From contig JAKQIK010000011.1 in assembly GCA_029557395.1 (NCBI GenBank), forward strand, positions 1 to 42,057: a stretch of DNA of 42,057 bases. Direction: 5' to 3'. This stretch comes from a bacterium (lineage in GTDB: Bacteria; Patescibacteriota; Saccharimonadia; Saccharimonadales; JACDBH01). Shown in pieces: positions 6,669-37,852 of the stretch; within the stretch, counting starts at the first letter, position 1, and the number at the start of each line of letters is the position of its first letter. A model generated the notes under the pieces. It saw only the letters and a program-made list of their open reading frames with translations. It was not told the origin of the DNA and did no database searches. The position numbers and the translations under genes are program-made.

Positions 6669-7302
6669 CGCTTAGTATGATTGATTCGCTGGGTCTGAGT
6701 CGTTGGTATGTTTTGCTGGTTTGTTTGGCGGTATCAGCAAAATGGAAGTCATAGACATCGATACCGGTGTCCGATAGTAAAGCATCATGGGTTGGTACTA
6801 TGACGTCAGACTTAGTACTAGCAATAAATTCACAAGCTTCCCTAACTCTTAACCATGGCCCAGACGACGGAGTCAGGAGATATCTGACTGGCCTTGGAAA
6901 TTGGGCGTAAGAATCACCCGGATATGCTACTAGATTATTTATGCATACGCCCAAGTTTTTGATAATCGGGAGGCTTTCTCTGATGAGCTCGTGTTCATCG
7001 CCATAAAATTCGAGTGAGAAAGAGCCGATATTATATATTTTTAACTTTTCTGGCTCAGTGGCTTGATTTAGTTTTGTCACAACTTCGGTAGACCCAAATA
7101 TCTGGGCATTAGGATTTTGAGCTAATATTTTATCAAGTTTTTCTGAAAAAAAATGATCTGGGTGTTCATGGGTTATAACAATAGCGACTATCCGTGATAA
7201 ATCACCTGGTAGGTTTGTAAATATACCGGGGTCGATTACTACCTTATCGCCATCATCATTTTCTAAAAAAACACAAGCATGTTCATATTTGGTAAGCTTC
7301 AT
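6661..7302 (-). CDS. MBL-fold metallo-hydrolase
   Basis: HxHxDH motif (ITHEHPDHF). I prefer the ATG at 7302 (MKLTKYEHA), which is preceded by GGAG. The longer ORF-track start at 7401 would overlap smpB. Confidence 0.85.
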   Translation of the reverse strand: MKLTKYEHACVFLENDDGDKVVIDPGIFTNLPGDLSRIVAIVITHEHPDHFFSEKLDKILAQNPNAQIFGSTEVVTKLNQATEPEKLKIYNIGSFSLEFYGDEHELIRESLPIIKNLGVCINNLVAYPGDSYAQFPRPVRYLLTPSSGPWLRVREACEFIASTKSDVIVPTHDALLSDTGIDVYDFHFADTAKQTSKTYQRLRPSESIILSVT

Positions 7303-13474: not shown

Positions 13475-13504
13475 TTGACAAATATTGATATTATGTGATA
13501 CAAT
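13475..13504 (+). promoter_or_regulatory. Candidate sigma70-type promoter of the atp operon
   Basis: TTGACA (13475-13480), 18 nt, TACAAT (13499-13504), preceded by TGTGA. It lies about 80 nt upstream of the first atp ORF. Confidence 0.5.
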
Positions 13505-13585: not shown

Positions 13586-13939
13586 ATGCGTATGGGTAGA
13601 AAACACCGCACTAAAAGTAAGCGACGGTCTAGGTATGTAGACCCTGCTGTTGAATCTATAGATCAAATGGCTGTGATTAATGCTCGCGATATGATGTTTG
13701 GAAATCTAGTTAGTATGGGCTGGCGTCTAGCGGTCATGGTTTTATTACCTATTTTTATTGGAGTTCAGATTGATAAATGGTTGGATTCTTCGCCGTCGGT
13801 TACATTGGCGGCTTTTTTTATTGCTATTTTTGGTGCAGGCGTATTAATCTATAGAACGTATAATGAAATGAATAGTCAGTCAGAAATAGACTCAAGGATA
13901 AAGCGTATCAAAAAATCGAGAGGAAAAAATAATGTTTAG
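13586..13939 (+). CDS. AtpZ/AtpI-like small membrane protein of the atp operon
   Basis: Basic N-terminus, then two TM helices (GWRLAVMVLLPIFIGVQIDKW; LAAFFIAIFGAGVLIY). First gene of the atp operon, with an 8-nt overlap with atpB. The exact start is uncertain. Confidence 0.7.
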   Translation: MRMGRKHRTKSKRRSRYVDPAVESIDQMAVINARDMMFGNLVSMGWRLAVMVLLPIFIGVQIDKWLDSSPSVTLAAFFIAIFGAGVLIYRTYNEMNSQSEIDSRIKRIKKSRGKNNV

Positions 13940-14774
13940 TAATCTGATAGCAGGCTTTTTTGCGACAGCCGAGTCTGAGGGGCCGGCAATTCATATAACT
14001 CCAGGTGAGATATTCCAGGTAAACGGTATTAGTATTACCAACTCTATGATCTACGGACTAATATCGTCTATTCTAATCATTGTTTTTTTGATAATTGTGG
14101 CCAGACGTATGACGGTTAAGCCAAAACGTGGGGTGATTCAATTTGTTGAGATTGGTGCTGAGTTTATTGTTAATACAATTCAGAACTCTATGGGATCACG
14201 TAAAAAAGCAATAAAGTATGCACCAATCTTTGCTACCGCTTTTTTCTTTGTTATGTTCAGCAACTGGCTTGGTCTCATACCAGGTTCGGGTGAATCACTT
14301 ATGTATAATAGTCAACCGGTTATTAGGCCTTTTACTGCCGATCTCAATGCTACTTTGGCTGCCTCAACTATCATGATGATACTCGTGCAATATTTTGCAA
14401 TCAAAGAGTCGGGCGTAGCAAAACATATCAGGCATTTTTTTGCTGGTAGCCTCTGGAATCCAGCAACCTATCTCTTGGGAATTTTTGAGGTATTCTCTGA
14501 GTTCACCAAGATATTTAGCTTGGCACTAAGATTATTTTTGAATGTTGCTATTGGTGAAGCTATTATCGCAATTTTTTCATACCTAGGTAGTTTTGCCGCG
14601 CCTATCACTACCCTGCCGATTTTGTTGCTCGAATTATTTATTGGAGCGCTACAGGCTTATATTTTTACAATGTTGACTATTATGTACTTATCAGCAGCGA
14701 TCAAACATGATCATGATGTGGATGAGCTTGAAAGACACGAGCTGGCAAAGGCAGCGACTGCAAAGACAGCATAA
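13932..14774 (+). CDS. atpB: F0F1 ATP synthase subunit a
   Basis: Polytopic protein with a conserved LALRLFLN arginine motif; operon position. Confidence 0.93.
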   Translation: MFSNLIAGFFATAESEGPAIHITPGEIFQVNGISITNSMIYGLISSILIIVFLIIVARRMTVKPKRGVIQFVEIGAEFIVNTIQNSMGSRKKAIKYAPIFATAFFFVMFSNWLGLIPGSGESLMYNSQPVIRPFTADLNATLAASTIMMILVQYFAIKESGVAKHIRHFFAGSLWNPATYLLGIFEVFSEFTKIFSLALRLFLNVAIGEAIIAIFSYLGSFAAPITTLPILLLELFIGALQAYIFTMLTIMYLSAAIKHDHDVDELERHELAKAATAKTA

Positions 14775-14825
14775 TAGTAAAGTTTTTAAGAGTAATATAA
14801 TTTATAAAAGGAGTTAATAACTAAA

Positions 14826-15032
14826 ATGGAACTTGATGTACTAGCAAAAGGTATAATGATGGGATTTGGCATGCTTGGGCCTGCTATCGGTATTGGTTTG
14901 ATTGGTTCTTCATTCATGAACGCTGTCGGACGTAATCCAGAGGCGGCAAAGTATTTTGGACAGATATTTGTGATTATCGCTATCGTTGAGCTAATGGCTC
15001 TCCTAGTGTTTGCATCGCTATTTATAATTTAG
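14826..15032 (+). CDS. atpE: F0F1 ATP synthase subunit c
   Basis: 68-aa helical hairpin with a Gly-rich helix 1 (GPAIGIGLIG), a GRNPE loop and a carboxylate in IVELMAL. There is no S/T after the Glu, so it looks H+-type. AGGAG lies upstream. Confidence 0.95.
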   Translation: MELDVLAKGIMMGFGMLGPAIGIGLIGSSFMNAVGRNPEAAKYFGQIFVIIAIVELMALLVFASLFII

Positions 15033-15058
15033 TAAAAAAGAAGGAATTTAGATAAATA

Positions 15059-15595
15059 ATGCTACCAATATATTTTGCATCTAGCGAGGCGGCTGAAAGT
15101 ACCGGTATCCTTGGCTTTAACATCAAAGCATTTATCATTCAGATAATTACTTTTGTGTTAGTTTTTATCATACTCAAAAAATTCGCATTTAATAAAATCA
15201 TTGCGATCTTAGACGAACGACATAAGGTTATTGATGAGGGTGTTCGTCACGGACAACAAATGCAAAAAGAACGTGAACGGTTTGAAAAAGATACAGCCAA
15301 GATTGCGCGTGAAGCTAGACACCAGGCTGACGAAATAATATCCGACGCTCAAAAAGAATCTAGAGATATTATTCGTGAGGCCGAAAAAGCTGCCCATGTT
15401 AAATCTGAGCGAATGTTGGCCGATGCAGAAGTTCGTATCAATGAAGAGGTCGAACAAGCTCGTCGTAAGCTCGAAAAAGACGTGGCTGAGTTAGTGTCTG
15501 ATGCCACAGAGGCAGTTGTTGAAGAAAAAGTCGACAGCAAAAAAGACACTGAGCTTATCAATAAGGCTATAAAGAAAGGTCGAAAGTCTAAGTAA
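15059..15595 (+). CDS. atpF: F0F1 ATP synthase subunit b
   Basis: A single N-terminal TM helix followed by a long charged coiled-coil; operon position. Confidence 0.9.
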   Translation: MLPIYFASSEAAESTGILGFNIKAFIIQIITFVLVFIILKKFAFNKIIAILDERHKVIDEGVRHGQQMQKERERFEKDTAKIAREARHQADEIISDAQKESRDIIREAEKAAHVKSERMLADAEVRINEEVEQARRKLEKDVAELVSDATEAVVEEKVDSKKDTELINKAIKKGRKSK

Positions 15596-15597
15596 TT

Positions 15598-16008
15598 ATG
15601 CCAGATATTTCACGCAAACAATTGGCAGAACTAATCGGTGAGAAGACACTACATGTACGTGACACTGATAAATTAGTCAAAGAGATTGCTAGTTTTTTTG
15701 TATCATCGGACCATAGTCAGATAGATATAGACTCACTTATGCGTGATGTTATGAAGTATAGGCAAAAACATGGCTTCATCGAAGCTACAGCTGTTAGCGC
15801 GCATGAGTTGGATAAAAAAACCATTGATGAGGTGCATGATCTTTTAAGCGAGTACTTCCCTGGAGCTAAGCATATTAAGGTTAATCATCGAGTAGATACT
15901 AATCTTATTGGTGGTGTCCGGATAGACTTGCCAGCCGAAAGTTTCGATTTATCAGTTAGGTCAAAATTGAATATTTTTAAGAAATTGGTCGCAAAGGAGA
16001 GATTTTAG
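15598..16008 (+). CDS. atpH: F0F1 ATP synthase subunit delta (OSCP), unusually short
   Basis: The C-terminal OSCP signature is present ([13 protein letters not shown]...). It is only 136 aa. The start cannot lie further upstream, because atpF ends 2 nt before it. Confidence 0.85.
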
Positions 16009-16010
16009 GT

Positions 16011-17564
16011 ATGGCAACTTTAGGCGATGTTTCTATAGTAGAGCTATCGGCAGATATTAAGGCTGCTATTGCTGAGCTCAAGAAGCGTCCAGAAATTGAG
16101 GATACAGGAATTGTTACACGAGTAGGAGATGGAGTAATTTGGATTTATGGTTTGACATCTGTTGGCTATAACGAGATGGTTGAGCTCGAGTCTGTGGATG
16201 GTGGCGCCGTGACAGCATTTGCCTTTAACCTGGGCCAAGAAGAGATTGGTGCAGTGCTACTTGGTAATGATACCAAGGTCAAAGCTGGTGCAAAAGCCAA
16301 GCGCACTGGTAGGGTTGTAGAAATTCCGGTTGGTCCTGAGTTAGTTGGTCGGGTTGTTGATCCACTGGGTAATCCTTTGGATGGAAAAGGTGCGATAAAA
16401 GCTAAATTACGCGCACCGGCTGAGCAGATTGCACCAGGTGTTCTATCGCGTAAGGGTGTGCATGAACCACTTATGACAGGTATTATTGCAATTGATTCCA
16501 TGGTGCCGATTGGTCGTGGTCAGCGTGAGCTTATTATTGGTGATAGACAGACTGGTAAAACTGCTATTGCCGTAGATACTATGATAAATCAGCACAGACA
16601 AGGGACTAGTGTAATTAACATTTACGTAGCCATTGGTCAAAAAATGAGCAAAATCGCTCGTTTGGTTGAGCGTCTAAAGCGCGAAGGCGTGATGGATCAG
16701 TCAATCGTAGTAGCAACTTCGGCGGCTGACCCAGCGCCAATGCAATACTTAGCTCCTTATGCTGGCTGTGCGATGGGTGAGTACTTCCGAGATAATGCTC
16801 AGCATGCCTTGATAATTTATGATGACTTATCCAAGCACGCTGCTGCTTATCGTCAAATGTCACTATTGCTTCGTCGTCCACCGGGACGTGAGGCCTATCC
16901 TGGTGATGTATTTTATTTGCATTCTAGGCTACTTGAGCGAGCAGCTAAACTTAGCGATAAGCTTGGTGCTGGTTCGCTGACTGCCCTACCGATTATCGAG
17001 ACTCAGGCTGGTGATATTTCGGCTTATATCCCGACTAACGTAATTTCTATTACTGACGGTCAAATATTTATGGAAACAAACCTGTTCTATCAAGGTATTC
17101 GTCCGGCTGTATCGGTTGGCTTGTCTGTGTCGCGTGTCGGTGGATCAGCTCAAACTAAGGCAATCCAATCGGTTGCAAAGTCGCTTCGAGTAGACTTGGC
17201 GCAGTTTCGTGAACTAGCTAGCTTTAGCCAGTTTTCTACAGATTTAGATGCTGAGACAAAACAACGTATCGAGAGAGGACAGAGATTGACGGAGCTACTT
17301 AAACAACCTCAGTTTAGTCCGTATTCTACCTGGCAGATGTATGTCATGCTTCTATCTGCAACAAAAGGTGCTTTTGATAAGGTTTCTGTTGATAAGATCA
17401 AAATAGCTGAAGCAGCCTTGTTCCGCGAATTCAAGAACAAGCACAAGAAGTTACTCGAGGACATTGATAAGGGTCTAGTCCCTGACGATGAAGGTCAACA
17501 AACCATTATTAAATTGGCCGAACAAGTAGCTGATAGCTATAAACCGATAGAGAAAACTGATTAG
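16011..17564 (+). CDS. atpA: F0F1 ATP synthase subunit alpha
   Basis: GDRQTGKT Walker [13 protein letters not shown], full-length similarity to the alpha subunit. Confidence 0.98.
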
Positions 17565-17587
17565 AGTGGGAGAATAGGATTAGTATT

Positions 17588-18010
17588 ATGTCCGAGACCA
17601 ATAAACAATCGGAAATAGTCGGTAGAGATTTCTTCCCGCAAGGTAAGGCTGCCTACGCAATGGCTCATATCGCCTTGTTTGATATACGAGCTACGCTTAT
17701 GGCCTGTGATATGAATGAATCTTCGACAGCTGGTCAAAAAAAGGTAGTCTCAGTGGTGAGAAATACCATAAACCAAATATCTGAATATGATGATCAGGGC
17801 CTATTTCATCCACCTTTAGGTTATTTTTCAGATAAAGTAAAATCTGAACTGGAGTATGCTGAACAAGATGGTGCGTATAAAGCTTCTGACGAATCAGGCT
17901 TGGTGAATTTGGATAGAGAAAAAATCGAAGAAACTTCTATGATGATTATGGCAATAGTGCGTCATGGTGGCTTATATAGTGATTCTTATTCGCGGGAGAT
18001 ACTTGCATAG
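17588..18010 (+). CDS. Orphan 140-aa soluble protein inserted between atpA and atpG
   Basis: ORF track. It starts at an ATG 23 nt after the atpA stop. Its TAG (18008-18010) abuts the atpG ATG (18011). Acidic, no TM helix, no recognised domain. Confidence 0.7.
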   Translation: MSETNKQSEIVGRDFFPQGKAAYAMAHIALFDIRATLMACDMNESSTAGQKKVVSVVRNTINQISEYDDQGLFHPPLGYFSDKVKSELEYAEQDGAYKASDESGLVNLDREKIEETSMMIMAIVRHGGLYSDSYSREILA

Positions 18011-18886
18011 ATGGCTAGCACTCAGCAACTAAAACGCCGGATTGGTAGTGTCAAGAATACCAAGCAGATTACCAAAGCTATGGAGCTGGTGGCTGCTAGC
18101 AAGATGCGCAAGGCTACCGAAGCTGCCCATAGGGGGCGGGCTTATCGCCAGTCTGCACACAGTATGCTGGCTAGACTAAACAAAGTTACTGAGATTAATG
18201 AACATCCATTATACAAAAAACGTCCTGTTGACCAGAGACTCTATATTGTTATTACTAGCAATCGTGGGCTTGCCGGAGCGTACAATAGTAATGTCATAAA
18301 GTCATTGGCAGGCTCAATAGCTAGTGATAAAAAACAAAAAATTAAATCTAGCGTCATTGTGATTGGTAAACGAGGCGCCCAATTTTTAAACCGAGTCGAA
18401 GGTATCGATATAGTAGCTGTTTATGATGATTTTAGCGATAAACCCACGGCTAATGATATTCGCCCTATCCTTAATACTATTATTGATAAATACACAGCTA
18501 AGCTAGTTGATGAAGTTTGTATTATTTTTACAGAACACAAATCAAATATATTGCAGACTGTAGACAATTTGACTGTCCTACCAGCTAGTTACGAGACAGA
18601 TCCTGATGAGTCCGAAGGTCCTTCCCTGTCTGATGTTACATTCGAGCCATCTGTCAATGATGTGCTAGAGAATGTTACCGAACGATTGTTGGAGGTTCAG
18701 ATTTGGCAAGCACTTTTAGAATCAATTGCTTCTGAACAGTCAATGCGTATGCTCAGTATGAAAAATGCTACAGATAATGCTACAGAAATAATCGATGATT
18801 TAACACTCGAGTTTAATACTGCTCGACAAGCTAAAATAACTCAGGAATTAGCAGAAATAACTGGTGGAGCGGAGGCAATAAAATGA
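18011..18886 (+). CDS. atpG: F0F1 ATP synthase subunit gamma
   Basis: LKRRIGSVKNTKQITKAMELVAASKMRKA ... ARQAKITQELAEITGGAEA. Confidence 0.97.
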   Translation: MASTQQLKRRIGSVKNTKQITKAMELVAASKMRKATEAAHRGRAYRQSAHSMLARLNKVTEINEHPLYKKRPVDQRLYIVITSNRGLAGAYNSNVIKSLAGSIASDKKQKIKSSVIVIGKRGAQFLNRVEGIDIVAVYDDFSDKPTANDIRPILNTIIDKYTAKLVDEVCIIFTEHKSNILQTVDNLTVLPASYETDPDESEGPSLSDVTFEPSVNDVLENVTERLLEVQIWQALLESIASEQSMRMLSMKNATDNATEIIDDLTLEFNTARQAKITQELAEITGGAEAIK

Positions 18887-19095
18887 GTGATAAAGATAAA
18901 CCTAGGACCTATAAGGACGCAGTGTTAGACGGAGGAGCTGGGCTAGTTGGCAGTGATATATTTCCAGAACAAGAGGAGCGGATAATTCACACTACATTAC
19001 TACGTAGATTAGCAAGTCTAGGCTCAAGTGGATACATAAAAGTAATAAAGCAAGATGTTATAATAAATAGCGACGAATTGTCGGAGGTAGAATAG
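18883..19095 (+). CDS. Orphan 70-aa protein inserted between atpG and atpD
   Basis: The ATG overlaps the atpG TGA (ATGA). GGAGG lies 7 nt upstream. Its TAG (19093-19095) abuts the atpD ATG (19096). Confidence 0.65.
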   Translation: MSDKDKPRTYKDAVLDGGAGLVGSDIFPEQEERIIHTTLLRRLASLGSSGYIKVIKQDVIINSDELSEVE

Positions 19096-20897
<1,802 letters not shown>

Positions 20898-20923
<26 letters not shown>

Positions 20924-21318: not shown

Positions 21319-22200
21319 ATGAGTGACAGATTATTTGAACTAAAGGAGATGGATACTATGCCAACAGAGATAACAATTACAGAGCCTGTAGGTGTAGGAG
21401 TCGGTAGCATAACAGCGCCCGAGATGACCCTACAGCAGGCCGAGCTCGAAGCTCAGGAAATTGTAGAATTTAGAAAAGAAATTGATTGGCGTAATCCTGT
21501 TGTCTGTTTTGACGGCCGTACCTTAGAAGAGGGTCAGGAAAAGTTACCTCTTGGTGCCCATATGGCGGGTGGAGCCATGACGGCTCTTGTTGCAGCCAAA
21601 GCAGTTGGATACCATCTTGAAGGTGCATCACTACTAAATTCTTTGAAAGAAAAAGGCTTAAATCTAGGTGCTCATGTTGATACAGGCAATCGAGATGCTG
21701 AATTTAGGAATGGTACAGGCTGTGGTGCTTGTGATGGCTGTGACAAAAATTGCCAAGCACTAGAAGATAATAGAACCGAAGCCAAGGGAATCGTTGAGTT
21801 TGCTATGGGCGAAGATTTTGATGAAAAGTCTTTTGATGAGCTAACGCTTTCAAATTTTTCTGATGATAAAAATACACTTCGTAATTTGGTGGGCGAAGAT
21901 CTTACGGAAGTACTATTAGATGATGGCAAAGGAGTCCATGGCCACCGTGAACAAATTGCTGTATTCAATTACGACGAAAACACTACTATCGATAGGGATG
22001 AATATTTTGCGAAAACAGGAAAGCAAGCTTTTGTAATTGATATGTGGTATATAAAAAAGTTAGCCAACGAGATGGCTACCGGCGTAGATGCCGAGCAACA
22101 AGCGAAAGATTTGTACCATGCTATGACATCATTCCAGGTTGCAACATATATAGGTCTGTGTGATGGTAGCCATAGGGTTGCAGTCTTGAAATCAAATTGA
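21319..22200 (+). CDS. Hypothetical protein with Cys/His clusters (possible metalloprotein)
   Basis: ORF track; GAAGG lies upstream. It contains VVCFDGR, GAHVDTGNRD, GCGACDGCDKNC, VHGHRE and LCDGSHR. No family recognised. Confidence 0.75.
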   Translation: MSDRLFELKEMDTMPTEITITEPVGVGVGSITAPEMTLQQAELEAQEIVEFRKEIDWRNPVVCFDGRTLEEGQEKLPLGAHMAGGAMTALVAAKAVGYHLEGASLLNSLKEKGLNLGAHVDTGNRDAEFRNGTGCGACDGCDKNCQALEDNRTEAKGIVEFAMGEDFDEKSFDELTLSNFSDDKNTLRNLVGEDLTEVLLDDGKGVHGHREQIAVFNYDENTTIDRDEYFAKTGKQAFVIDMWYIKKLANEMATGVDAEQQAKDLYHAMTSFQVATYIGLCDGSHRVAVLKSN

Positions 22201-22282
22201 TGTAATTTATTATCGGCAGATTTGCATTTTAGTGACAGAACAGTTATTGTTAATGCATAAATAAATGGAGGTTTTATATCGT

Positions 22283-23095
22283 ATGACATTGCGATCAAAA
22301 GTCGCTGTGTTGTTGGCAGAATTCTTGGGTACGGCAATTCTTGCAACCGCAGCTATTAATATTTCTCGCTCACAGATAGGCATAGCCTACTTCGTAGCGA
22401 TAGGCGTGGGACTCGTTATGGGATTACTAGTCTTAGTCTTTGGCAAAGTGTCTGGTGCTCATGTGAACCCAGCTGTTACGGTTGGTTTATGGACAGTAAG
22501 AAAAATCGGCACACTAAAGGCATTGTCTTATGTTGCGGCTCAGATGCTTGGTGGTCTTGCTGCTTGGCAACTTGCTAACTTTTTCAATAGTGGTGAGATT
22601 ATGAGTATCGCTCCAAAGCAGTTTGAGTGGACAGCTTTGGTAGCTGAAGCTGTTGGTGCATTCGTATTCACCTTTGCGATTGCTGCTGCTATTTACCAAG
22701 ACTTAGAAATTGGCAAAAAGGCCGCTGTTATTGGTGGTGGTTTAACCGCTGGTGTGATTATTGCTTCACTTGGTTCTAGTGCGATTATTAATCCGGCCGT
22801 TGCCCTTGCAAACCAATCTTGGGCCAAGGCATATATTTTTGGTCCTATCATTGGTGGTGTAATTGGCTTTAATCTATACGTGCTATTTTTTGCACCAATC
22901 TCAGCACTAATTCCATCAAAGAAGCTAAAAGTTAGCAAGACTTCAAAAGAGGATAAGTCATCAAGCGAAGTTTCAAAAAAGACAGCTTCAACAGCTAAGG
23001 TTGTTTCAAAATCTAGCTCTGTAAAAAAAGCTCCAGCCAAGAAAACAGCAACAAAATCTACCACAAAAAAGAAGGCTACGACAAAAAAGAAGTAG
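22283..23095 (+). CDS. MIP-family channel (aquaporin/glycerol facilitator-like) with a Lys/Ser/Thr-rich C-terminal tail
   Basis: Two NPA boxes (HVNPAVTVG and IINPAVALA) and six hydrophobic helices. I prefer the ATG at 22283 (MTLRSK), with GGAGG upstream. The ORF track starts at 22265. Confidence 0.9.
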   Translation: MTLRSKVAVLLAEFLGTAILATAAINISRSQIGIAYFVAIGVGLVMGLLVLVFGKVSGAHVNPAVTVGLWTVRKIGTLKALSYVAAQMLGGLAAWQLANFFNSGEIMSIAPKQFEWTALVAEAVGAFVFTFAIAAAIYQDLEIGKKAAVIGGGLTAGVIIASLGSSAIINPAVALANQSWAKAYIFGPIIGGVIGFNLYVLFFAPISALIPSKKLKVSKTSKEDKSSSEVSKKTASTAKVVSKSSSVKKAPAKKTATKSTTKKKATTKKK

Positions 23096-23143
23096 TGTAC
23101 CCATAGATTTTATAAAAGGCTTTTTTGAAGGAATTCTAAAAAG

Positions 23144-23169
23144 GCTTCGGATAATACCGAAGCTTTTTT
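23144..23169 (+). terminator. Rho-independent terminator after the MIP gene
   Basis: GCTTCGG (23144-23150), loop ATAATA, CCGAAGC (23157-23163), then TTTTTT. Confidence 0.6.
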
Positions 23170-23249
23170 AGTTTACATTTTTTACAGTTGGTATTAATAT
23201 ATTCATAAGCTTATTTAATTATGATTGCCGATATCATAAGGAGTGTTAT

Positions 23250-24353
23250 ATGCACGATACACGAACAACCGTAGGTGAACAGCTATATGTTCAACAAAAT
23301 GAACCACAAGAAAACTCTCGATTTGATGTCGAGAGTTTTTATTTTGGAGAGACACCACCCAGACAAGAACTGATAGAACAGTCACAAATTGTCGATATCC
23401 ACGACGTAGGTGAAGTCACGGATAGCAGAGATGGTTACATTCGAAGACTTGGATTTCGTACAGCGGCTGGTTATGCGTATGCTGCGCTAGTAGGGGTACC
23501 ATACAAACAAGAGACCGAAATCCCAGTGATGTACACAACGGCTTGGTGGACAAGCACTGAGGGTCATAATGAACGTACAGCACGCAATCTTATGCGACTT
23601 GGTAACGTAGTCATGATGGTAGGTGCTGAAGGTAGCTGGCATGACGGGTGCTTATCAAAGCTCGAAGCAAAAATTACGCTTAGTGGCTCGGCCGCGGCAA
23701 CATTAAACTTTACACAAGAGGTAATAGATGATTATAAGTACTTTGTGGATCCAACTCGTCGAGTGCTGATAGGAGAGTCACGTGGAGCAATGGTCGGCAT
23801 GGGCATTCTCGCCCTAGATGAAGATTTTTCTCAAGATATAAAATTTGCTGATTTGACTGCCCCCTGCTTCCCTAGGAAGTTTAGACCGTCAGACGCATTA
23901 TTGTTAGCATCACAAATTTACCATGAACCTGTTTCTACCGCTAAGCTAATTGGAAAGCTGACAACAAATAGGTTGCTACATTATCCAGGTACTATCGATG
24001 CCAATCCTTATTCTGTGGCTCATCAAGTTATGATTGGCCCTGCTCTTTTTAGTGGCGAGGCTGGCGACTTAGCAAGGCAGATCGACACAGACAAAATCAT
24101 TCATATTACGTGTTTCCAAAATGATAAGGCGTCGATGCAGAAAGAGTGGTCAAGTATATTCGCTAATAACTCAAATGTACGAATTGTTCCGCTAGAAGGT
24201 AGTCATTTGAGTTTGGCAGACCCGCAGACGCTAGACTATATATTGGCTAGAAATAGTGCCTTTAAACAAGCGTATGAAAATAATGGAGATGAAATAAAAC
24301 CTGATGATATTTACCAAGTAGCACATACTTTGGCAAGAACTGGTAATCATTAA
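23250..24353 (+). CDS. Alpha/beta-hydrolase-fold protein (serine hydrolase-like)
   Basis: Nucleophile elbow GESRG (LIGESRGAMVG), a late His (LEGSHLSL), AAGGAG SD. A possible TTTACA-N17-TAATAT promoter lies at 23172-23200. Confidence 0.65.
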   Translation: MHDTRTTVGEQLYVQQNEPQENSRFDVESFYFGETPPRQELIEQSQIVDIHDVGEVTDSRDGYIRRLGFRTAAGYAYAALVGVPYKQETEIPVMYTTAWWTSTEGHNERTARNLMRLGNVVMMVGAEGSWHDGCLSKLEAKITLSGSAAATLNFTQEVIDDYKYFVDPTRRVLIGESRGAMVGMGILALDEDFSQDIKFADLTAPCFPRKFRPSDALLLASQIYHEPVSTAKLIGKLTTNRLLHYPGTIDANPYSVAHQVMIGPALFSGEAGDLARQIDTDKIIHITCFQNDKASMQKEWSSIFANNSNVRIVPLEGSHLSLADPQTLDYILARNSAFKQAYENNGDEIKPDDIYQVAHTLARTGNH

Positions 24354-24416
24354 TCGATATTATCTCTTGACAAAAAATATCATAGACTTCTTTATATTAT
24401 GATATAATATTGTTAT

Positions 24417-24917
24417 ATGAGTAAATTTGAGGATATAAATCAAAATTCATTATTGCACGACCCTACTGAAAACGTTGATGTAGGACAATGTGGTAGTTGC
24501 CCAAACGTAATAAAGTGTATATCAGCAATAAAAATGGAACATAGGGTATCGTATGAGACCTTAAATAATTCTGTTGACCCTAGAATAGAACAGAGTGTAG
24601 ATGATATTTTTGAATCAGCAAAAGCATCAGGATTTTTGTCTATATTAGAGCATGTTAGTGAACTGGAAATTGTTGATGGGGATTCTATGTTGAGTGCTAT
24701 GAGGAGTGTGGCAGTTAATCAAGCAGATGATTCTGATGAAATGATCAAAGAAGCATTACTCGATCTTGAAGTTATGACAATGGACTGCGATGGACCAATA
24801 AGGATGAGAGCCAAAAAGTCAGGTAGAGTTGTCACCGCTACAATATGTAACAGTCCGCAGGCGTATGATGGTTTATCGTCTGAAGAAGTATATGTTAGGC
24901 GTGATTATGATAGATAA
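24417..24917 (+). CDS. Hypothetical acidic 166-aa protein with a CxxC
   Basis: ORF track. Contains GQCGSCPNVIKC plus later Cys residues (MDCDG, ICNSP). TATAAT lies 8 nt upstream of the ATG. Confidence 0.6.
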   Translation: MSKFEDINQNSLLHDPTENVDVGQCGSCPNVIKCISAIKMEHRVSYETLNNSVDPRIEQSVDDIFESAKASGFLSILEHVSELEIVDGDSMLSAMRSVAVNQADDSDEMIKEALLDLEVMTMDCDGPIRMRAKKSGRVVTATICNSPQAYDGLSSEEVYVRRDYDR

Positions 24918-24931
24918 ACATTTTTTCATAG

Positions 24932-25798
24932 TTAAGCATGACGAGTTAAGCTAAGTTTAGTAATTGAATTGAGGGGTATATAATATCTCTCGCGTTGTTC
25001 ATTGATGGAAATAGTATCTATACTAATACAAAGTAGGCCTATATCCTCGACATACTCGAAGATAGACGGTAGTAGCTGGTCTGAAAAAAAAGAAGATCCT
25101 GGTTCTATGATGTCTATGTATGTGTCTTCGTCTGCATGAATAAAGCTCGTAGATGTTATTTTGGCCGAATATTCGTATAAGGGTAGTATGAAATTCAAAT
25201 AGTTCAAGTAATAATCAATTTCTAATTCTGTGCGGTTAGATAATCGGTCAAATATTGATATTAACTGATTAAAATCTTTTGGATCGTTGAGTACGGCCTC
25301 ATCAATATAGACAGCTATTCTATCGTCTGGATCGGGTAGAATATCTGCTTCTGGTACGATAAGTTCGGGTACGTGTAATTGGCTGTTTTCGACTGGGGCA
25401 AAGGCATAAAACTCACTCCGCCCTTGCTCGAGCGCGGTTGTTGTGTTTACAGCAAGTAGACCTACCCAGTAGCCAATAATCAATTGTTCGTTTTCGGTGC
25501 GGAGCAAGGGCTCTATGTCACCCCTAGATCCTACTCTGACACCAAAATTTTTTCCAGATAACATACCACGGGGTGGAAGTCTATTATAATCTTGGTATTG
25601 TCCCCTGCTGTTTATTTCTGGAAAATAAACCTCACCAGTGACTACTACATTATTATCACCGACAATCTCGTTTAAAATTGGATCGAGATTGTGATAGACA
25701 TTGGTGAAGTGACCATACTTATCTAGGTAAGATGTTATCTTCGTCTGCTCTTCAAGAGCTAAGTCACGAAAAGCGTTTAGGTCAGCCTCAATACCCAT
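24932..25798 (-). CDS. Hypothetical acidic 288-aa protein; apparent distant paralog of 25902-27023
   Basis: ORF track. It shares colinear motifs with the neighbour (EFYAF / EYHAL; ELEIDYYLNYLN / VELDYLLNKIN). Confidence 0.7.
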   Translation of the reverse strand: MGIEADLNAFRDLALEEQTKITSYLDKYGHFTNVYHNLDPILNEIVGDNNVVVTGEVYFPEINSRGQYQDYNRLPPRGMLSGKNFGVRVGSRGDIEPLLRTENEQLIIGYWVGLLAVNTTTALEQGRSEFYAFAPVENSQLHVPELIVPEADILPDPDDRIAVYIDEAVLNDPKDFNQLISIFDRLSNRTELEIDYYLNYLNFILPLYEYSAKITSTSFIHADEDTYIDIIEPGSSFFSDQLLPSIFEYVEDIGLLCISIDTISINEQRERYYIPLNSITKLSLTRHA

Positions 25799-25901
25799 AT
25801 ACGAATTATACTTTTGAAAGTAGTTTATGCAAGCGTAACCGGAGAAGAGTTTGGTCTTGCCTATGCTTGCAAACGTAAGTGAAAGTTATATTATATAAAT
25901 A

Positions 25902-27023
25902 ATGTCTAAAGATATTTTACCAGAAGAGTTTTTGCGTGATGTAGAGGTAGCAAATCAAATAATTCAAGAATCATATTTGCTCGCGGCTAAGATAGCTTTA
26001 CATCAGGAGCTACGGCCGGATCAAGCTATGCCGTATGAGGTTTACGAGGATGTCGAAGACCTTAACGATCAAATCGATAGAGTTTCGCATTTGGAAGTAA
26101 CATTCAGTGGTATTGGGTGTATACCAGCTGAGTTACCAGATGGCGACCCTGTCAGTATTTATAGTCGCGCAGAATCTTTGCAGGGTAATCTAGAGTATAT
26201 ATCACTCATGGATCCAGATTATATGACTTTCGAAAGTCCTGATGATGTAGATGAATATTTAGAAGATAGCGGTGATTTGATGTACGAATTGACTGCATTA
26301 GAATCTCTCAAAAAGAACATGATAGTTCCCAGGTCAGGCATGTCTCTTTATACTGAGTTTTTGCTCTACACACTTCCTGAAGACGAAATTTCTGGAACAG
26401 CAATTCGGGCGCCTAGTATTGAGTATCACGCACTGATAGATAGCTCAACGCTAACTATAGATACAATTGATCCAGAACAAAAAACTGAAGCTTGTGAACC
26501 AGATGAAGTACCAGTTAAACTACTAGAATTTGCTAGTTTAGTGCGAAACAAACTCATGGATACTGGCTTTAGAAGGTTGCCGGCTGGTAGGCAGGCCGTA
26601 GAGTTAGATTATCTTTTGAACAAAATCAATCGAGATATAAGGATTGATAGATTTATGACGATATTTAATCCTCAGGATTTATACGTACCAGATACTAGCC
26701 ATGATAATCATAGAATGTCGAGAGTTGATGTATCGGACTATCCTTATCTTTTGGGTATAAATTGTATGAGGATAGACTCGCTTGAATATCTATCTCTGAC
26801 AAACGGTCTAATGCGTATAGCCAGTAATTCAAAGATGAGAGATCATAGTGTATCTTTCTGTATCGTTGGACAGATAGACGAAGTCACTAGGAAAATATTA
26901 AATTTACCAACCGACATAGTGTGGGTGCCTGTTAGACCACTAGCTAGGAGTAGACGTAAGCGTACTATGCTAGAGAAACCAACGATTTATGATGCAAGTT
27001 TTGTGCTACTAGAAGATATTTAG
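25902..27023 (+). CDS. Hypothetical acidic 373-aa protein; apparent distant paralog of 24932-25798
   Basis: ORF track; see the neighbour. No recognised domain. Confidence 0.75.
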   Translation: MSKDILPEEFLRDVEVANQIIQESYLLAAKIALHQELRPDQAMPYEVYEDVEDLNDQIDRVSHLEVTFSGIGCIPAELPDGDPVSIYSRAESLQGNLEYISLMDPDYMTFESPDDVDEYLEDSGDLMYELTALESLKKNMIVPRSGMSLYTEFLLYTLPEDEISGTAIRAPSIEYHALIDSSTLTIDTIDPEQKTEACEPDEVPVKLLEFASLVRNKLMDTGFRRLPAGRQAVELDYLLNKINRDIRIDRFMTIFNPQDLYVPDTSHDNHRMSRVDVSDYPYLLGINCMRIDSLEYLSLTNGLMRIASNSKMRDHSVSFCIVGQIDEVTRKILNLPTDIVWVPVRPLARSRRKRTMLEKPTIYDASFVLLEDI

Positions 27024-33734: not shown

Positions 33735-34934
33735 TTAGTCTATGGCATTCACTTTAGTGGCGCAGACCAAACAGTTGTCTTCCTTTATACGATCCGCCAT
33801 AGTTCTATTGGAAGCTTTCCACCATGGCTCAATATCTCGATAGCCTATCCAGTCAGCACCTTTTCTGAGTAACCAGCCTAATTTGCCATAAAAATGCATT
33901 CCACCCCATACAACGATAGCCCAATTCTTTCCAACGGGTGTAATATAAATTGGTTTTTTCGGCTTGTAAGCCTTGGGGTCTTTGCCCTCCATGTATCTGA
34001 CTAAATTTTTTGTTACATAGTTTGCGTCGTGTAGTGCTGTTTGAGCCATGCCGGTATATTTAGTATCAGCATTATCACCTATGACGAAAACACCAGGCCA
34101 TGCTTGCATCAACTGGTCCACTTTTACGCGACCATTGTCAGACAAAATAAAGTGATTATCTTTGAAAAAGCTATTATTTGCAATGCCTGCCGTCCAAATA
34201 ACTGTCTTTGTCTTTATGGGTTTGCCATCAAGTAGTAATGTGTCGGCTGATTCGGCTTGGACTGGCTTTTTGAAAACGAGTTGAACGCCAAGATGTCTAA
34301 GTCGTCGGGCTAATACCCTAGAAACACTATGAGGCATACGTGGCATTAGTCGCGGGGCTGCTTCTATAAGCATAACTTTTGGCTTTGAACGTCCACGAAT
34401 GCCGTGTTGTTTACGCAAGTATTTGATGTACTCGGGCAATGCTCCGGCAATCTCAATGCCTGTTGGACCCCCACCTATGACAACGTAGCGATCTTCGCGG
34501 TGAATAGGATCCATAAGATTCTTATGGAGGTGAGTTTTGAGTATCTCTGCATCTTTTAATGATTTTATGCCAAATGAGTATTTGTCCATGCCTTTGATAC
34601 CAAAGTAATTTGTTGTCGTGCCTAACGCAAAAATAATTGCGTCATAATCTATTATTTGACCACTGGCAAGCTTGAGGGTTTTTTTGCCACGATTAATTTT
34701 GATGGCTTTATCAATAATTATTTCGATTCTTTTGCCTGCAAATAGTTCGCCCAATGGAATAGTAGATACTACTTTGCTTCCACCGGAGGCCGTGTGATAC
34801 ATCATTGGATAATATTCAAAAAATGGCTTATCAGCCACGAGCGTAACCTTGAAATATGAATATTTTGATAACTCCAGCGCAGATTTGATACCGCCAAAAC
34901 CACCACCCACGACAACTATTTCTTGTTTTTTCAT
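33735..34934 (-). CDS. ndh: Type II NADH dehydrogenase (NDH-2), FAD-dependent
   Basis: VVVGGGFGGIKSA and a second dinucleotide fold VVIGGGPTGIE; about 400 aa. Confidence 0.88.
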   Translation of the reverse strand: MKKQEIVVVGGGFGGIKSALELSKYSYFKVTLVADKPFFEYYPMMYHTASGGSKVVSTIPLGELFAGKRIEIIIDKAIKINRGKKTLKLASGQIIDYDAIIFALGTTTNYFGIKGMDKYSFGIKSLKDAEILKTHLHKNLMDPIHREDRYVVIGGGPTGIEIAGALPEYIKYLRKQHGIRGRSKPKVMLIEAAPRLMPRMPHSVSRVLARRLRHLGVQLVFKKPVQAESADTLLLDGKPIKTKTVIWTAGIANNSFFKDNHFILSDNGRVKVDQLMQAWPGVFVIGDNADTKYTGMAQTALHDANYVTKNLVRYMEGKDPKAYKPKKPIYITPVGKNWAIVVWGGMHFYGKLGWLLRKGADWIGYRDIEPWWKASNRTMADRIKEDNCLVCATKVNAID

Positions 34935-35073
34935 ATATTTATTAGATTCAGCCTAGCTCTTTGATTATTTTATTGATGATAACTACCGTTTATTATAAAC
35001 ATAAACGAAACTTAAGTCCAAGTCATCTTGCTTGTGTTTAATAATAGATGCTATTATGTGGTTAAGGAAAAAT

Positions 35074-36729
35074 ATGAAAAAATTTATAGAAACATTAAAA
35101 GGTGCGGGTTTTGATGGCAAAGTAGATGATTCTGCATCTACAAGGGATTTTTATAGTCATGATGCATCTCTGTTTGAAATTAAGCCGGAGATTGTCGTTC
35201 ATCCAAAAGACTCTAATGATGTCAAGACTTTAGTTCGGGCTGTACTTAAAGCTAGGCCTGAAAACCCAAAACTTAGTATTACTGCTAGGAGCGCTGGTAC
35301 CGATATGTCTGGCGGAGCTATCAACGAGTCTATCATTGCTGATTTTACTACCCATTTTGATAAGATTATTAATTTGAATAAGACTTCTGCGCGTGTTCAG
35401 CCTGGTGTTTATTATCGGGACTTTGAAAAAGAGTCATTAGCTGTGGACGCTCTACTACCTTCTTATCCAGCATCCAAGGATCTGTGTACAATAGGCGGTA
35501 TGGTCAACAATAATTCTGGTGGTGAGAAATCGCTTGAATTTGGAAAAACTGATAATTTCGTTAAAGAATTGAAGGTAGTGCTATCAGACGGTAATGAATA
35601 CACTGTAAAACCACTAAGTCGAAAAGAACTTGAAACAAAAATGAAACAAGATAACTTCGAGGGGGAGCTATACAAGAAGACTTTTGAGCTACTCGAAGAT
35701 AATTATGATTTACTACAAGCTGCCAGACCGAGGGTAAGTAAAGATTCAACCGGCTACCATCTGTGGGATATTTGGAACCGTGAAACAGAAATATTTGATT
35801 TAACAAAATTATTTGTTGGTGCTCAAGGAACGCTTGGGTTAACTACCGAAACTAAGTTTGATCTTGTTAAAGCACCAAAAAACTCCGGAACTTTAGTTAT
35901 ATTTTTGCGTAAATTAGATAATCTTGGCAATATTATTAATGAAGTGATGAAGCATAAGCCTGCTACCTTTGAAGGTTTTGATAACTACACTCTGATGTTG
36001 AGTTTTAAGCTATTTTTCTCTTTTCACAAATTACTTGGTTGGCCTGAAACGATTAAATTGGCCTTTCAACTTATCCCTAATGCCCTAATGCTTTTTAAGG
36101 GAGTGCCAAAAATGGTACTACTTGTTGAATTTAATGGTGATACACCCGAGGAAGTGGCTCAAAAAGTTCACGATCTAAGGATGGACTTGTCTGGATATAA
36201 TCATGAGTCTGTTTTTGAAGAAGATGAGAACGAGATGAAAGCTCGCAAGTTTTGGATTATGCGTCGGGCTAGTTTCAAGCTTCTAAGAGAAAAGGTCAAG
36301 GACAAACACACCGCTCCCTATATAGATGATTTGATTGTGAATCCAGAATATTTGCCTGAGTTTTTGCCAAAACTGCGTAAAATTTTAAATAAGTATAAGC
36401 TACTTGCTACTATCGCTGGGCATATGGGTGACGGGAATTTTCATGTTATCCCTTTGATGAAACTAGAAGATAAAAAAGAGCGTGCCAAGCTAGAACCAAG
36501 CATGAGAGAGGTCAACGAATTAATCTTGAAGTACGGAGGTAGCTTGAGCGGCGAGCATAATGACGGTTTGGTGCGTGGTCCATGGCTTGAAGAGATGTAT
36601 GGCAAAAAAGTCGTTAAACTTTTTAAGGAAGTAAAAAATATCTATGACCCGGACAATATTTTTAACCCACATAAAAAGGCCGATGCGACTTGGGATTATT
36701 CATTTAGTCATGTTAGAGAAAGTTTCTGA
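35074..36729 (+). CDS. FAD-linked oxidase (GlcD/D-lactate dehydrogenase family)
   Basis: PCMH-type FAD domain (ITARSAGTDMSGGAI) and a C-terminal GGSLSGEHNDGL...IFNPHK. I prefer the ATG at 35074, with AAGGAAA upstream. The ORF track starts at TTG 35032. Confidence 0.88.
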   Translation: MKKFIETLKGAGFDGKVDDSASTRDFYSHDASLFEIKPEIVVHPKDSNDVKTLVRAVLKARPENPKLSITARSAGTDMSGGAINESIIADFTTHFDKIINLNKTSARVQPGVYYRDFEKESLAVDALLPSYPASKDLCTIGGMVNNNSGGEKSLEFGKTDNFVKELKVVLSDGNEYTVKPLSRKELETKMKQDNFEGELYKKTFELLEDNYDLLQAARPRVSKDSTGYHLWDIWNRETEIFDLTKLFVGAQGTLGLTTETKFDLVKAPKNSGTLVIFLRKLDNLGNIINEVMKHKPATFEGFDNYTLMLSFKLFFSFHKLLGWPETIKLAFQLIPNALMLFKGVPKMVLLVEFNGDTPEEVAQKVHDLRMDLSGYNHESVFEEDENEMKARKFWIMRRASFKLLREKVKDKHTAPYIDDLIVNPEYLPEFLPKLRKILNKYKLLATIAGHMGDGNFHVIPLMKLEDKKERAKLEPSMREVNELILKYGGSLSGEHNDGLVRGPWLEEMYGKKVVKLFKEVKNIYDPDNIFNPHKKADATWDYSFSHVRESF

Positions 36730-36760
36730 CCCTAAACTATACCAATCTCATCCATCGAGC

Positions 36761-37630
36761 TTAGTTCAGGTACGGATTGATGGATATCATTAAGCTAAAT
36801 ACTAGCAACAAAACAAGAGAGTACTTAAACATGAGCCTTGACCAAGCGATACTCTGGGTGTCTACTAACCCCTGAACTGCTACTATTAACCAACGTGCAC
36901 AAAATACCAACATGACTACTAGATAACTAAGTGTTCCTAGTGGTGTTGCTGAGAGAGCAATAATACAAATAATGGTTAATATAGTATAGATAAATATTTG
37001 TCGAACTGTAGATTTTACACCTCTTATCACTGAGCTGACAGGCACGCCCGCGTTAGCATATTCTTTTTGCCGAAAAATCGAAATCGAATAAAATTCCGGC
37101 ATTTGCCAAAAGAATATGATCAAGAAGAGTAAACTTGCCGTGATATCTAATTTTGGCACGACGGCCACATAGCCAGCCAAAATTGGAGCTGCACCACTTA
37201 GCGACCCAACAAGTGTACCGTGGACACTCAGACGTTTGCCCAGCGCACCATACAGCCAAACATAAGTAATAAACCCAAATACGCCAACACCAACAACAAA
37301 AAAATTCGTCCATAAGCTAAGTAATAAAATACCGAGTATGCCCAGAGCTACACCAAAAACAGTTGCCCCAGCAGTACTTACCTCACCGGTTATTAGTGGA
37401 CGTGATTTTGTACGTTCCATTTTGGCATCAATATCTTGATCTAAGACATTGTTAATTACGCAAGCAGAGCTAATTACAAAACTTGTTCCAAGTATAGTGG
37501 CCATAAACAAAGGCCAATTGACTAAACCATTTGCTGCAAACAAAAAGCCAGCTACGGTCGTTATCAGATTGCCGTACATCACCCGCGGTTTTATTAGCTG
37601 ATAATATGCTTTAATTTTTCTCTGGCTCAC
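36761..37630 (-). CDS. cyoE: Protoheme IX farnesyltransferase (heme O synthase)
   Basis: UbiA-family motif NNVLDQDIDAKMERTKSRPL; polytopic; follows cyoABCD. GTG start. Confidence 0.92.
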   Translation of the reverse strand: MSQRKIKAYYQLIKPRVMYGNLITTVAGFLFAANGLVNWPLFMATILGTSFVISSACVINNVLDQDIDAKMERTKSRPLITGEVSTAGATVFGVALGILGILLLSLWTNFFVVGVGVFGFITYVWLYGALGKRLSVHGTLVGSLSGAAPILAGYVAVVPKLDITASLLFLIIFFWQMPEFYSISIFRQKEYANAGVPVSSVIRGVKSTVRQIFIYTILTIICIIALSATPLGTLSYLVVMLVFCARWLIVAVQGLVDTQSIAWSRLMFKYSLVLLLVFSLMISINPYLN

Positions 37631-37674
37631 AACTATTAGTCTATCAGAAGATTTTATTATAACTATATCGTTTC

Positions 37675-37704
37675 ATTATATCATAATAATGTATATTTTG
37701 TCAA
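37675..37704 (-). promoter_or_regulatory. Candidate sigma70-type promoter directly upstream of cyoE
   Basis: Minus strand reads TTGACA (37704-37699), 18 nt, TATAAT (37680-37675), preceded by TATGA. Confidence 0.5.
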
Positions 37705-37710
37705 GTAATT

Positions 37711-37818
37711 CTGACCCACACGCACTTTTTGTCCTCCAGGGCGCTTTATAGGGAGCAGTTGGCTCGCCTATGGCGCTTGCTCACCCTATCCGGACATAAA
37801 AAAGTGCGTGTGGGTCAG
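37711..37818. mobile_element. MITE-like 108-bp palindromic element, copy 2, between cyoD and cyoE
   Basis: 107/108 identical to 525-632; the single difference is A37757 versus C571. It is in the same orientation. It is flanked by CAAGTAATT (37702-37710) and CAAGTTATT (37819-37827). Confidence 0.6.
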
Positions 37819-37852
37819 CAAGTTATTTACGGCGCATAATGCGTCCTTTTTA

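Follow-up and report, generated by a model that had tools for sequence, protein, structure and literature searches.

Two small open reading frames (ORFs) are inserted between the genes of the F1 core in the ATP synthase operon of a Saccharibacteria contig (JAKQIK010000011.1, assembly GCA_029557395.1), of which a stretch of 42,057 nucleotides (nt) was analysed on the plus strand and is referred to here as the window. ORF140 (17588–18010; ATG at 17588, TAG at 18008–18010) encodes an acidic, soluble orphan protein of 140 amino acids in between atpA and atpG, and ORF70 (18883–19095; ATG at 18883–18885, TAG at 19093–19095) encodes an acidic orphan protein of 70 amino acids in between atpG and atpD. 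Judged by their sequence features, both are concluded to be real translated genes that are native to the Saccharibacteria genome. They belong to a broader pattern, as coupled, acidic and rapidly exchanged small ORFs occupy the junctions between F1-core genes in many Saccharibacteria, and the junctions of the stator genes are rarely occupied. A role of ORF140 and ORF70 at F1 is plausible from this arrangement; that either of them is an essential or obligatory structural F1 subunit is unlikely.

Two coupled genes under selection between the F1 genes

Both ORFs fill essentially the whole gap between their neighbours, and all genes discussed for this operon lie on the plus strand. The gene atpA (F1 alpha, 517 amino acids, 16011–17564; 64–90% identity to Saccharibacteria alpha subunits) ends with a TAG stop at 17562–17564, and ORF140 starts 23 nt past this stop; the spacer (17565–17587) is the only untranslated one and carries a weak Shine-Dalgarno-like AGGA, as read from the sequence, at 17576–17579, 8 nt upstream of the ORF140 ATG. 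The TAG of ORF140 directly abuts the ATG of atpG (F1 gamma, 291 amino acids, 18011–18886; Pfam ATP-synt, E = 1.4e-90). At the other end of atpG, its TGA (18884–18886) and the ATG of ORF70 overlap as ATGA, and a Shine-Dalgarno GGAGG (18871–18875) in the atpG 3' end precedes the ORF70 start by 7 nt. Finally, the TAG of ORF70 directly abuts the ATG of atpD (F1 beta, 468 amino acids, 19096–20502; assigned from the ORF list and by alignment to relatives), and the GGAGG of atpD (19083–19087) is embedded within the last ORF70 codons, 8 nt before the atpD ATG. A preliminary description of this DNA, made from the sequence alone, had given exactly these coordinates for the two ORFs and had read the abutting or overlapping stops and starts as well as the GGAGG 7 nt before ORF70 in the same way.

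It had furthermore stated that there is no room for a promoter or a terminator, which agrees with a largest spacer of 23 nt and with the finding that no promoter- or terminator-like site above chance was present in between 17.5 and 19.1 kb. The packing, the lack of such internal sites and the tiling of the corresponding gaps in relatives bear out its proposal of co-transcription and coupled translation, so that a single transcript of ORF140 and ORF70 with the atp genes and their translational coupling are supported by the sequence arrangement. The initiation of atpG probably relies on termination and reinitiation at the TAG-ATG (18008–18013) after ORF140, because the sole Shine-Dalgarno-like element before atpG, a GGAG at 17995–17998, sits 12 nt from its ATG. 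Two other explanations of the junctions were considered and rejected. A structured RNA element instead of a protein was ruled out, as neither Rfam families nor tRNAs were found at the junctions of the window and of six related loci. Read-through of the TAG codons yielding ORF140-gamma or ORF70-beta fusions has no support: codons that abut share a frame trivially, and in most relatives the junction ORF ends at −8, where its frame differs from that of atpG.

The same arrangement is present in independent assemblies of close strains from several samples (L088–L095), and comparison with these strains gives a protein-coding signature for both ORFs. ORF140 shows seven synonymous and four non-synonymous changes, with a ratio of non-synonymous to synonymous substitution rates (dN/dS) of ~0.15 (binomial p = 0.003), and ORF70 shows eight synonymous and three non-synonymous changes (dN/dS 0.09–0.16, binomial p = 0.0005), the neutral expectation of the test being ~22% synonymous changes. 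The preliminary description had named a dN/dS near 1 as a sign against coding; the observed ratios and the synonymous excess show instead, at the level of substitution patterns, that purifying selection acts on both. Overall, dN/dS of ORF140 and ORF70 ranges from 0.09 to 0.27, compared to 0.01–0.08 for the atp genes. Moreover, the GC content by codon position follows GC1>GC2>GC3 in both ORFs with an overall GC as in the atp genes, and the in-frame codon bias of ORF140 falls inside the range of the atp genes. The description of both products as acidic and soluble was accurate as well, with isoelectric points (pI) of 4.8 for ORF140 and 4.9 for ORF70 and hydrophilic grand averages of hydropathy of −0.39 and −0.33, respectively.

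Predicted structures and relatives of ORF140 and ORF70

The AlphaFold2 model of ORF140, derived from eight sequences only, is a four-helix bundle (helices 21–42, 47–69, 79–91 and 110–126) with a small hairpin at residues 98–108, a predicted local distance difference test score (pLDDT) of 80.4 and a predicted template modelling score of 0.74. Residues 1–14, which carry the sequence VGRDFFP, have a pLDDT below 50 and are read as disordered in the model. Foldseek searches with this model returned only generic four-helix bundles, with best E-values of 0.48 in the PDB and 0.19 in BFVD; 0 of 237 PDB matches reached an E-value below 0.1 and no zeta structure was among the 50 matches shown. The structure prediction and Foldseek comparison proposed in the preliminary description yielded, for ORF140, a confident bundle that matches no known fold. 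Neither ORF140 nor ORF70 had a match in Pfam, NCBIfam, PDB sequences, PADLOC or PHROGs, with zero PADLOC and PHROGs families at E-values up to 1, in line with the earlier statement that the products carry no recognisable motif and with no match to a selfish or an unrelated family.

An index of 5.8 billion proteins contains one near-identical cluster each for ORF140 and ORF70. BLAST with ORF140 or ORF70 gave no match in the fetched loci of relatives described below. More sensitive searches resolved a family for ORF140. Searching 1.84 billion representatives exhaustively with phmmer identified the remote relatives P0003 (32% identity, E = 1.3e-5) and P0004 (27%, E = 1e-3), both encoded between atpA and atpG on their contigs. 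A family profile recruited the ORFs at the atpA/atpG junction of four species-level genomes (L048, L009, L052 and L055), and the profile search of the 5.8-billion index added only P0006, which abuts an atpG start, and P0007, which follows an alpha-like C-terminus and has another small ORF, not gamma, downstream. The family comprises the window protein, P0001, P0003–P0008 and the ORFs at this junction of L009, L048, L052 and L055, and all relatives of ORF140 with readable context are located at the atpA/atpG junction. Conserved positions are Y23, A26 and P76-L77, together with a C-terminal DHGS in most members, which is RHGG in the window; the N-terminus is the least conserved part.

The family is kept at this junction over lineages that span a gamma identity of 50% to 86%. 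In L081, the ORF140 homologue at the same junction shares only ~30% identity with the window protein, compared to 90% for alpha, 86% for gamma, 89% for beta and 59% for delta. Because of this low identity next to alpha, gamma and beta subunits of 86–90% identity, ORF140 is, by sequence comparison, a very fast-evolving and position-fixed gene. Several origins were tested and rejected for it. A diverged duplicate of an atp subunit found no support in hhalign comparisons with eight subunit alignments (best probability 0.4%, alpha C-terminal domain, E = 0.16), and a Pfam scan detected no F1Fo subunit family in ORF140 or ORF70. A substitute for the missing N-terminal domain of delta was discarded, since delta is short throughout the phylum, with or without junction ORFs. 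A distant IVP/Avd protein (PF05635) was rejected given the lack of a Pfam match and an hhalign probability of 0.1% for the ORF140 family against the IVP genes of these junctions. Profiles of zeta (DUF1476) and IF1 in Pfam-A did not match either ORF at E-values up to 1, and there was no PDB sequence match.

ORF70 behaves differently, as its AlphaFold model is of low confidence throughout (pLDDT 50) with a single helix at residues 28–45; the proteins of its group are possibly disordered according to this model. No significant full-length relatives beyond near-identical sequences were found in the 5.8-billion-protein index. What ORF70 has in common with other proteins is an N-terminal motif of ~20 residues (RTYKDAVLDGGAGLVGSDIFPEQEE, residues 8–32, 18904–18978), which recurs in five other ORFs at atpG/atpD junctions. 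It occurs in the ORFs of L040, L003 and L001, a motif profile found a further one in an independent metagenome set (L116, 64 amino acids, E = 2.6e-4), and the match to L096 is weak. The pattern reads Y-x(2)-x-V-x(2)-G-x(2)-G-x-V-G-x-D-[IF]-F-P and lies in short acidic ORFs, all six members of the group being located at the atpG/atpD junction. The link consists of ~20 residues only, so that a shared origin of the full-length proteins does not follow from this sequence similarity. The string D[FI]FP, which is common to ORF140 and ORF70, occurs four times in 15 thousand residues of gap ORFs compared to 0 in 266 thousand residues of background. A shared motif G.D[FI]FP tying the two proteins together was nevertheless rejected, because the pattern was set post hoc and the ORF140 N-terminus reaches only E = 1.5–2.2 against the profile; the resemblance is only a hint.

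The comparison of synteny proposed in the preliminary description placed ORFs of the ORF140 family and ORFs with the ORF70 motif at matching junctions in relatives. Its expectation that both ORFs persist in close relatives holds for L088–L095, which keep both, and fails for ORF70 in L081, where the atpG/atpD junction is a non-coding spacer of 72 nt even though gamma is 86% identical. ORF70 is dispensable in this sense.

Junction inserts across Saccharibacteria and the setting of the operon

A gamma probe was used to fetch two independent sets of 80 species-representative genome loci and 80 metagenome loci, and a junction was counted as expanded if the gap was at least 150 nt. In the genome set, the atpA/atpG (A/G), atpG/atpD (G/D) and atpD/atpC (D/C) junctions are expanded in 32 of 78, 47 of 77 and 33 of 69 cases, compared to three of 57 for atpB/atpE (B/E), five of 57 for atpE/atpF (E/F), one of 42 for atpF/atpH (F/H) and one of 43 for atpH/atpA (H/A). 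The metagenome set gives 23 of 67 (A/G), 30 of 63 (G/D) and 13 of 33 (D/C), with 0 of 22 for each of two stator junctions. The F1-core junctions are thereby expanded in about 35–60% of the loci and the stator junctions rarely. The statement of the preliminary description that canonical operons have no ORFs at these positions agrees with the Firmicutes outgroups, in which A/G and G/D are spacers of 15–99 nt that contain no ORF.

The expanded gaps are filled with coding sequence. Across 78 junctions, one to four ORFs on the same strand tile these gaps, with a median coverage of 100%. Relative to the stop upstream, the first ORF starts mostly at −4 or −1 nt (90% within −10 to +30), and the last one ends mostly −8, −1 or 0 nt from the next atp start (83%). 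The common ending at −8 corresponds to a TAG or TAA inside the N-terminal codons of gamma (ATG GCT AG.), and atpA uses the same overlap where no insert is present. For gaps of 200–600 nt, the longest same-strand ORF covers a median of 0.89 of the gap, compared to 0.30 in shuffled sequences (95th percentile 0.58). The junction ORFs have a median pI of 4.6, and 81–82% are below 5.5, compared to ~29% of the other ORFs in the same loci. In a Pfam scan, 142 of 147 junction ORFs had no match and the other five were 23S_rRNA_IVP. Genes of this type (PF05635) were found in relatives at D/C (L057:3617–4006, L037:3963–4334 and L066:8432–8797) and at A/G (L003:1315–1521 and L144:491–886, the latter recognised by eye only); there are at least six in total, five in the first set and a sixth, IVP-like one (L144) in the second. 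Every family with several members is restricted to a single junction, apart from IVP and an unexamined cluster of two ORFs (L033 at A/G, L064 at G/D), and no copies of junction families were seen in the 6-kb flanks. Much of the diversity of occupants may reflect hyper-divergence rather than unrelated origin, because intermediates of the ORF140 family link apparent singletons.

The inserts vary in size and kind. Coupled small acidic ORFs are present at the D/C junction of many relatives (e.g., L001:8864–9064, L010:8379–8600 and L029:8691–8888) and six of these form a family with a YTP...LND motif; atpD and atpC overlap in the window, which, unlike many relatives, has no inserted ORF there. Some orphans at the G/D junction are larger, with 203–312 amino acids (L176:2281–2892, L039:6864–7802, L048:6864–7625 and L030:7292–8026), so that inserts are not limited to microproteins. 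Spacers of 100–150 nt with non-coding-looking "ORFs" were also observed (L066:5903–6004 and 6869–6982; L068:6869–6976; L057:2095–2202; L064:5281–5433; L033:723–923). The sequence just before atpD looks alike among such spacers (tails ...HTTNKGDII and ...HNVKQGDIS) and has no Rfam match; it could represent a conserved leader.

Alignment of the window (15510–20923) with L088 (1–5706) is gapless from 15510 to 20430 and reveals a mosaic of identities. It is ~99.7% over atpH, atpA and ORF140 and ~96% from near 17.9 kb over atpG, ORF70 and atpD, drops further toward the atpD end and is lost abruptly at ~20430. Beyond this point, L088 differs in its atpD tail and carries a spacer, and its epsilon has only 25% identity to the atpC product of the window. 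As the identity steps near the ORF140/atpG boundary and at the atpD end, gene junctions act as recombination breakpoints in this comparison.

Together with the two ORFs, the window carries a complete F-type operon. The top promoter-like site (13475–13504, plus strand), a sigma-70-like TTGACA and TG-TACAAT with an 18-nt spacer, 11 of 12 matches and an extended −10 TG, lies 82 nt upstream of atpI and is a candidate promoter of the whole atp operon by consensus match only. The Fo and stator genes atpI, atpB, atpE, atpF and atpH (13586–16008) have tight junctions throughout, with gaps of −8, 51, 26 and 2 nt. The start of atpI is at 13586 (Pfam ATPase_gene1); atpB (from 13932), atpE (from 14826) and atpF (from 15059) were identified by gene order and by Pfam calls on the syntenic relative L081. 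The short delta subunit of 136 amino acids (atpH, 15598–16008; Pfam OSCP) matches only the C-terminal part of the OSCP profile. Delta has 121–145 amino acids, mostly 126–136, in all Saccharibacteria and in one Berkelbacteria locus (atpH genes of L001–L072 and L076), compared to ~180 in Firmicutes; the call in L052 is a fragment of 69 amino acids. By these sequence comparisons, the alpha-binding N-terminal domain of delta appears to be reduced. Epsilon (atpC, 20477–20923, ~148 amino acids, start uncertain; Pfam ATP-synt_DE_N and ATP-synt_DE) has a constant length of ~147 amino acids in the relatives with or without junction ORFs.

Downstream of atpC (21319–27023), a run of acidic proteins (pI 4.3–5.2) of 293, 367, 166, 288 and 373 amino acids is interrupted by one basic membrane-like ORF (22265–23095), and the first of them has a weak, sub-threshold match to a cadmium carbonic anhydrase repeat (PF18484, E = 0.0011). 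Further downstream, a respiratory-looking cluster (33735–41671) contains an NDH-2-like ORF of 399 amino acids (33735–34934, minus strand), a heme O synthase-like ORF (36761–37630) and four cyoDCBA-like ORFs (37853–41671), assigned by size and order. This cyo-like cluster agrees with bo3 oxidases reported in soil Saccharibacteria (PMC8407418).

Possible roles of the junction proteins

As a preferred, albeit tentative, explanation, ORF140 and ORF70 could be dispensable proteins associated with the F1 core that act as modulators or assembly helpers. Both would be transcribed with the atp operon, with ribosomes passing directly to and from the genes for alpha, gamma and beta, ORF140 representing the four-helix-bundle family of the atpA/atpG junction and ORF70 the group of short proteins of the atpG/atpD junction. 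Made alongside the F1 core, the junction proteins might bind to it or to its assembly intermediates, and this binding might adjust how the enzyme is assembled or hydrolyses ATP, differently from lineage to lineage. IF1, AtpTheta and the C-terminal domain of epsilon are basic, in contrast to the acidic junction ORFs, and the known basic F1 inhibitors use the acidic DELSEED region of beta. Because of the acidity of the junction ORFs, basic surfaces, i.e., gamma and the C-terminal helices of epsilon, would speculatively be more plausible partners than DELSEED. The association with F1 is favoured because the inserts avoid the architecturally equivalent stator junctions in two independent sets and because each family keeps to a single junction even among distant lineages, from which we tentatively infer a physical or functional link to F1. 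A bolder form of this explanation, which is rather unlikely, holds that the proteins constitute an undescribed class of hypervariable microproteins between F1-core genes that modulate the ATP synthase lineage-specifically. Acidic "anti-inhibitors" would engage gamma or the basic C-terminal helices of epsilon and so determine how fast or in which direction the enzyme runs in these episymbionts, and the three F1 junctions would be a cradle, in which regulators repeatedly arise and get replaced.

Several observations weigh against an association with F1. ORF140 diverges far faster than its conserved putative partners alpha, gamma and beta, its N-terminus is poorly conserved, whereas the inhibitors known for F1 are either basic or rely on inhibitory segments that are strictly conserved, and ORF70 is replaced by a short spacer in L081. 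Many Saccharibacteria, i.e., the most distant ones and several closer ones, have tight canonical junctions, as do the Firmicutes and Berkelbacteria outgroups. Most junction occupants have no detectable mutual similarity, with 101 of 139 junction ORFs still being singletons after iterative profile clustering, and the junctions accept unrelated DNA, since IVP genes sit at more than one of them. The recombination breakpoints at junctions offer a non-functional route to variability, and the selection estimates rest on 11 substitutions per gene, these small counts being their main weakness. An obligatory subunit is unlikely because of the loss of ORF70, the divergence of ORF140, the tight junctions, the unrelated occupants and the IVP genes; a dispensable modulator and a co-expressed passenger are both possible. 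A serious, if somewhat doubtful, alternative sees the ORFs as such passengers of a recombination and insertion hot spot, in which new or foreign small genes can settle between the very conserved atpA, atpG and atpD, with functions, e.g., in host interaction or conflict, that are unrelated to the ATP synthase. They would be expressed strongly and constitutively from the operon, needing no separate promoter, and homologous recombination between the conserved flanking genes would retain or exchange them. The fast turnover, patchy presence and many singletons, the IVP genes at both A/G and D/C and the mosaic between the window and L088, with its steps near the ORF140/atpG boundary and its loss of homology near the atpD end, all fit to this alternative, as does the very rapid protein divergence, which is typical of conflict or accessory genes. 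However, this alternative alone does not account for the sparing of H/A and F/H, which have the same overlapping architecture and are almost never occupied (one of 43, one of 42 and 0 of 22 each), or of B/E and E/F, which have real spacers and are rarely occupied. Position-specific families without copies in the flanks, bar IVP and one two-ORF cluster, the fixation of the ORF140 family at a single junction over gamma identities of 50% to 86%, the native composition and the lack of matches in the defence and phage libraries likewise argue against it.

Translated spacers are a quite unlikely general account. Here, once an intergenic gap has expanded, selection would mainly keep an open coupled frame, so that ribosomes continue to cover the mRNA and reach the next atp gene. 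The peptide would only have to be harmless, i.e., soluble, acidic and not prone to aggregation, and some of the frames may be genes that arose de novo. The near-universal coupling of starts and stops, the complete tiling of gaps, the almost absent conservation across species and the acidic, hydrophilic composition without homology, which fits a benign filler, are consistent with this idea, and so is the window atpG, which abuts the ORF140 stop and lacks a well-spaced Shine-Dalgarno sequence. Against it stand the protein-level purifying selection on both window ORFs, the confidently predicted fold of ORF140 with conserved residues in very distant members, the specific 20-residue motif kept by ORF70 and the genomes with tight junctions, which show that a spacer is unnecessary; some of the shortest junction ORFs of relatives may nevertheless be such spacers. 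That the ORFs are not genes at all, i.e., chance frames or products of mis-assembly, is essentially refuted. ORF70 has no homologues beyond near-identical ones and a poor AlphaFold model, as a chance frame would, but the recurrence of the arrangement in the independent assemblies L088–L095, the synonymous excess, the coding pattern of GC, ORF lengths relative to the gap far above those of shuffled sequences and the agreement of the genome and metagenome sets all contradict it.

Known systems provide partial parallels for an association of the junction proteins with F1. Similar to IF1 and AtpTheta in size, ORF70 may likewise be largely unstructured alone, without homology to them. The genes of IF1 and AtpTheta are not known to be embedded between F1 genes. 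An unidentified reading frame "X" was reportedly described by Tybulewicz, Falk and Walker in 1984 at the gamma/beta junction of the atp operon of Rhodopseudomonas blastica. This extra ORF at the same junction is a single-species case, compared to the phylum-wide pattern at three junctions. Additional non-canonical genes in clusters of rotary ATPases are also known, namely atpQ and atpR of the N-ATPase and those of the F1-like type 2 and type 3 clusters of mycoplasmas (PMC5376962, PMC3369863). The operon of the window encodes an ordinary F1Fo enzyme, and its extra proteins are soluble, acidic and hypervariable. Those of the paralogous ATPases, in contrast, are mostly membrane proteins and represent conserved components that are specific to each family. 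Lineage-restricted and mutually non-homologous F1 regulators exist, such as the C-terminal domain of epsilon, zeta, IF1 and AtpTheta (PMC9317440; bioRxiv 10.1101/2021.07.30.454416), and the C-terminal extension of mycobacterial alpha is another lineage-specific modulator of F1 (PMC8617483). The alpha-proteobacterial zeta (DUF1476) is a small, soluble and supernumerary protein with a disordered N-terminus and a helical body (PMC9317440), and ORF140 is modelled with a low-confidence N-terminus ahead of its four-helix bundle. The zeta gene is located outside of atp operons, and zeta combines a strictly conserved N-terminus with a variable C-terminus (PMC9317440), whereas the N-terminus is the least conserved part of the ORF140 family. 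There is also no sequence match between the two, and ORF140 is acidic. The 23S rRNA IVP/Avd proteins (PF05635) resemble ORF140 as small four-helix bundles encoded at odd intergenic places, including the same atp junctions in relatives. Supernumerary small proteins tied to ATP-synthase operons are known, and the junction pattern of Saccharibacteria is undescribed as far as found, since literature searches retrieved no prior published description of it.

The ATP synthase is among the most conserved molecular machines and the layout of its operon is textbook knowledge. Saccharibacteria and other bacteria of the candidate phyla radiation have reduced genomes. It is unexpected that a third to two thirds of the sampled Saccharibacteria species insert fast-evolving, coupled small proteins between the genes of the F1 core. 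The enzyme might make ATP or burn ATP to energise the membrane, and both directions are plausible because the window encodes a bo-type oxidase, as judged by size and order. If the junction proteins do not contact F1, the junctions would represent a clean natural system to study gene birth, operon hitch-hiking and turnover. If it is true that they touch F1, they would be new and diverse natural modulators of the ATP synthase in organisms of poorly understood energy metabolism. In either case, the few Saccharibacteria in culture allow a direct test of the question.

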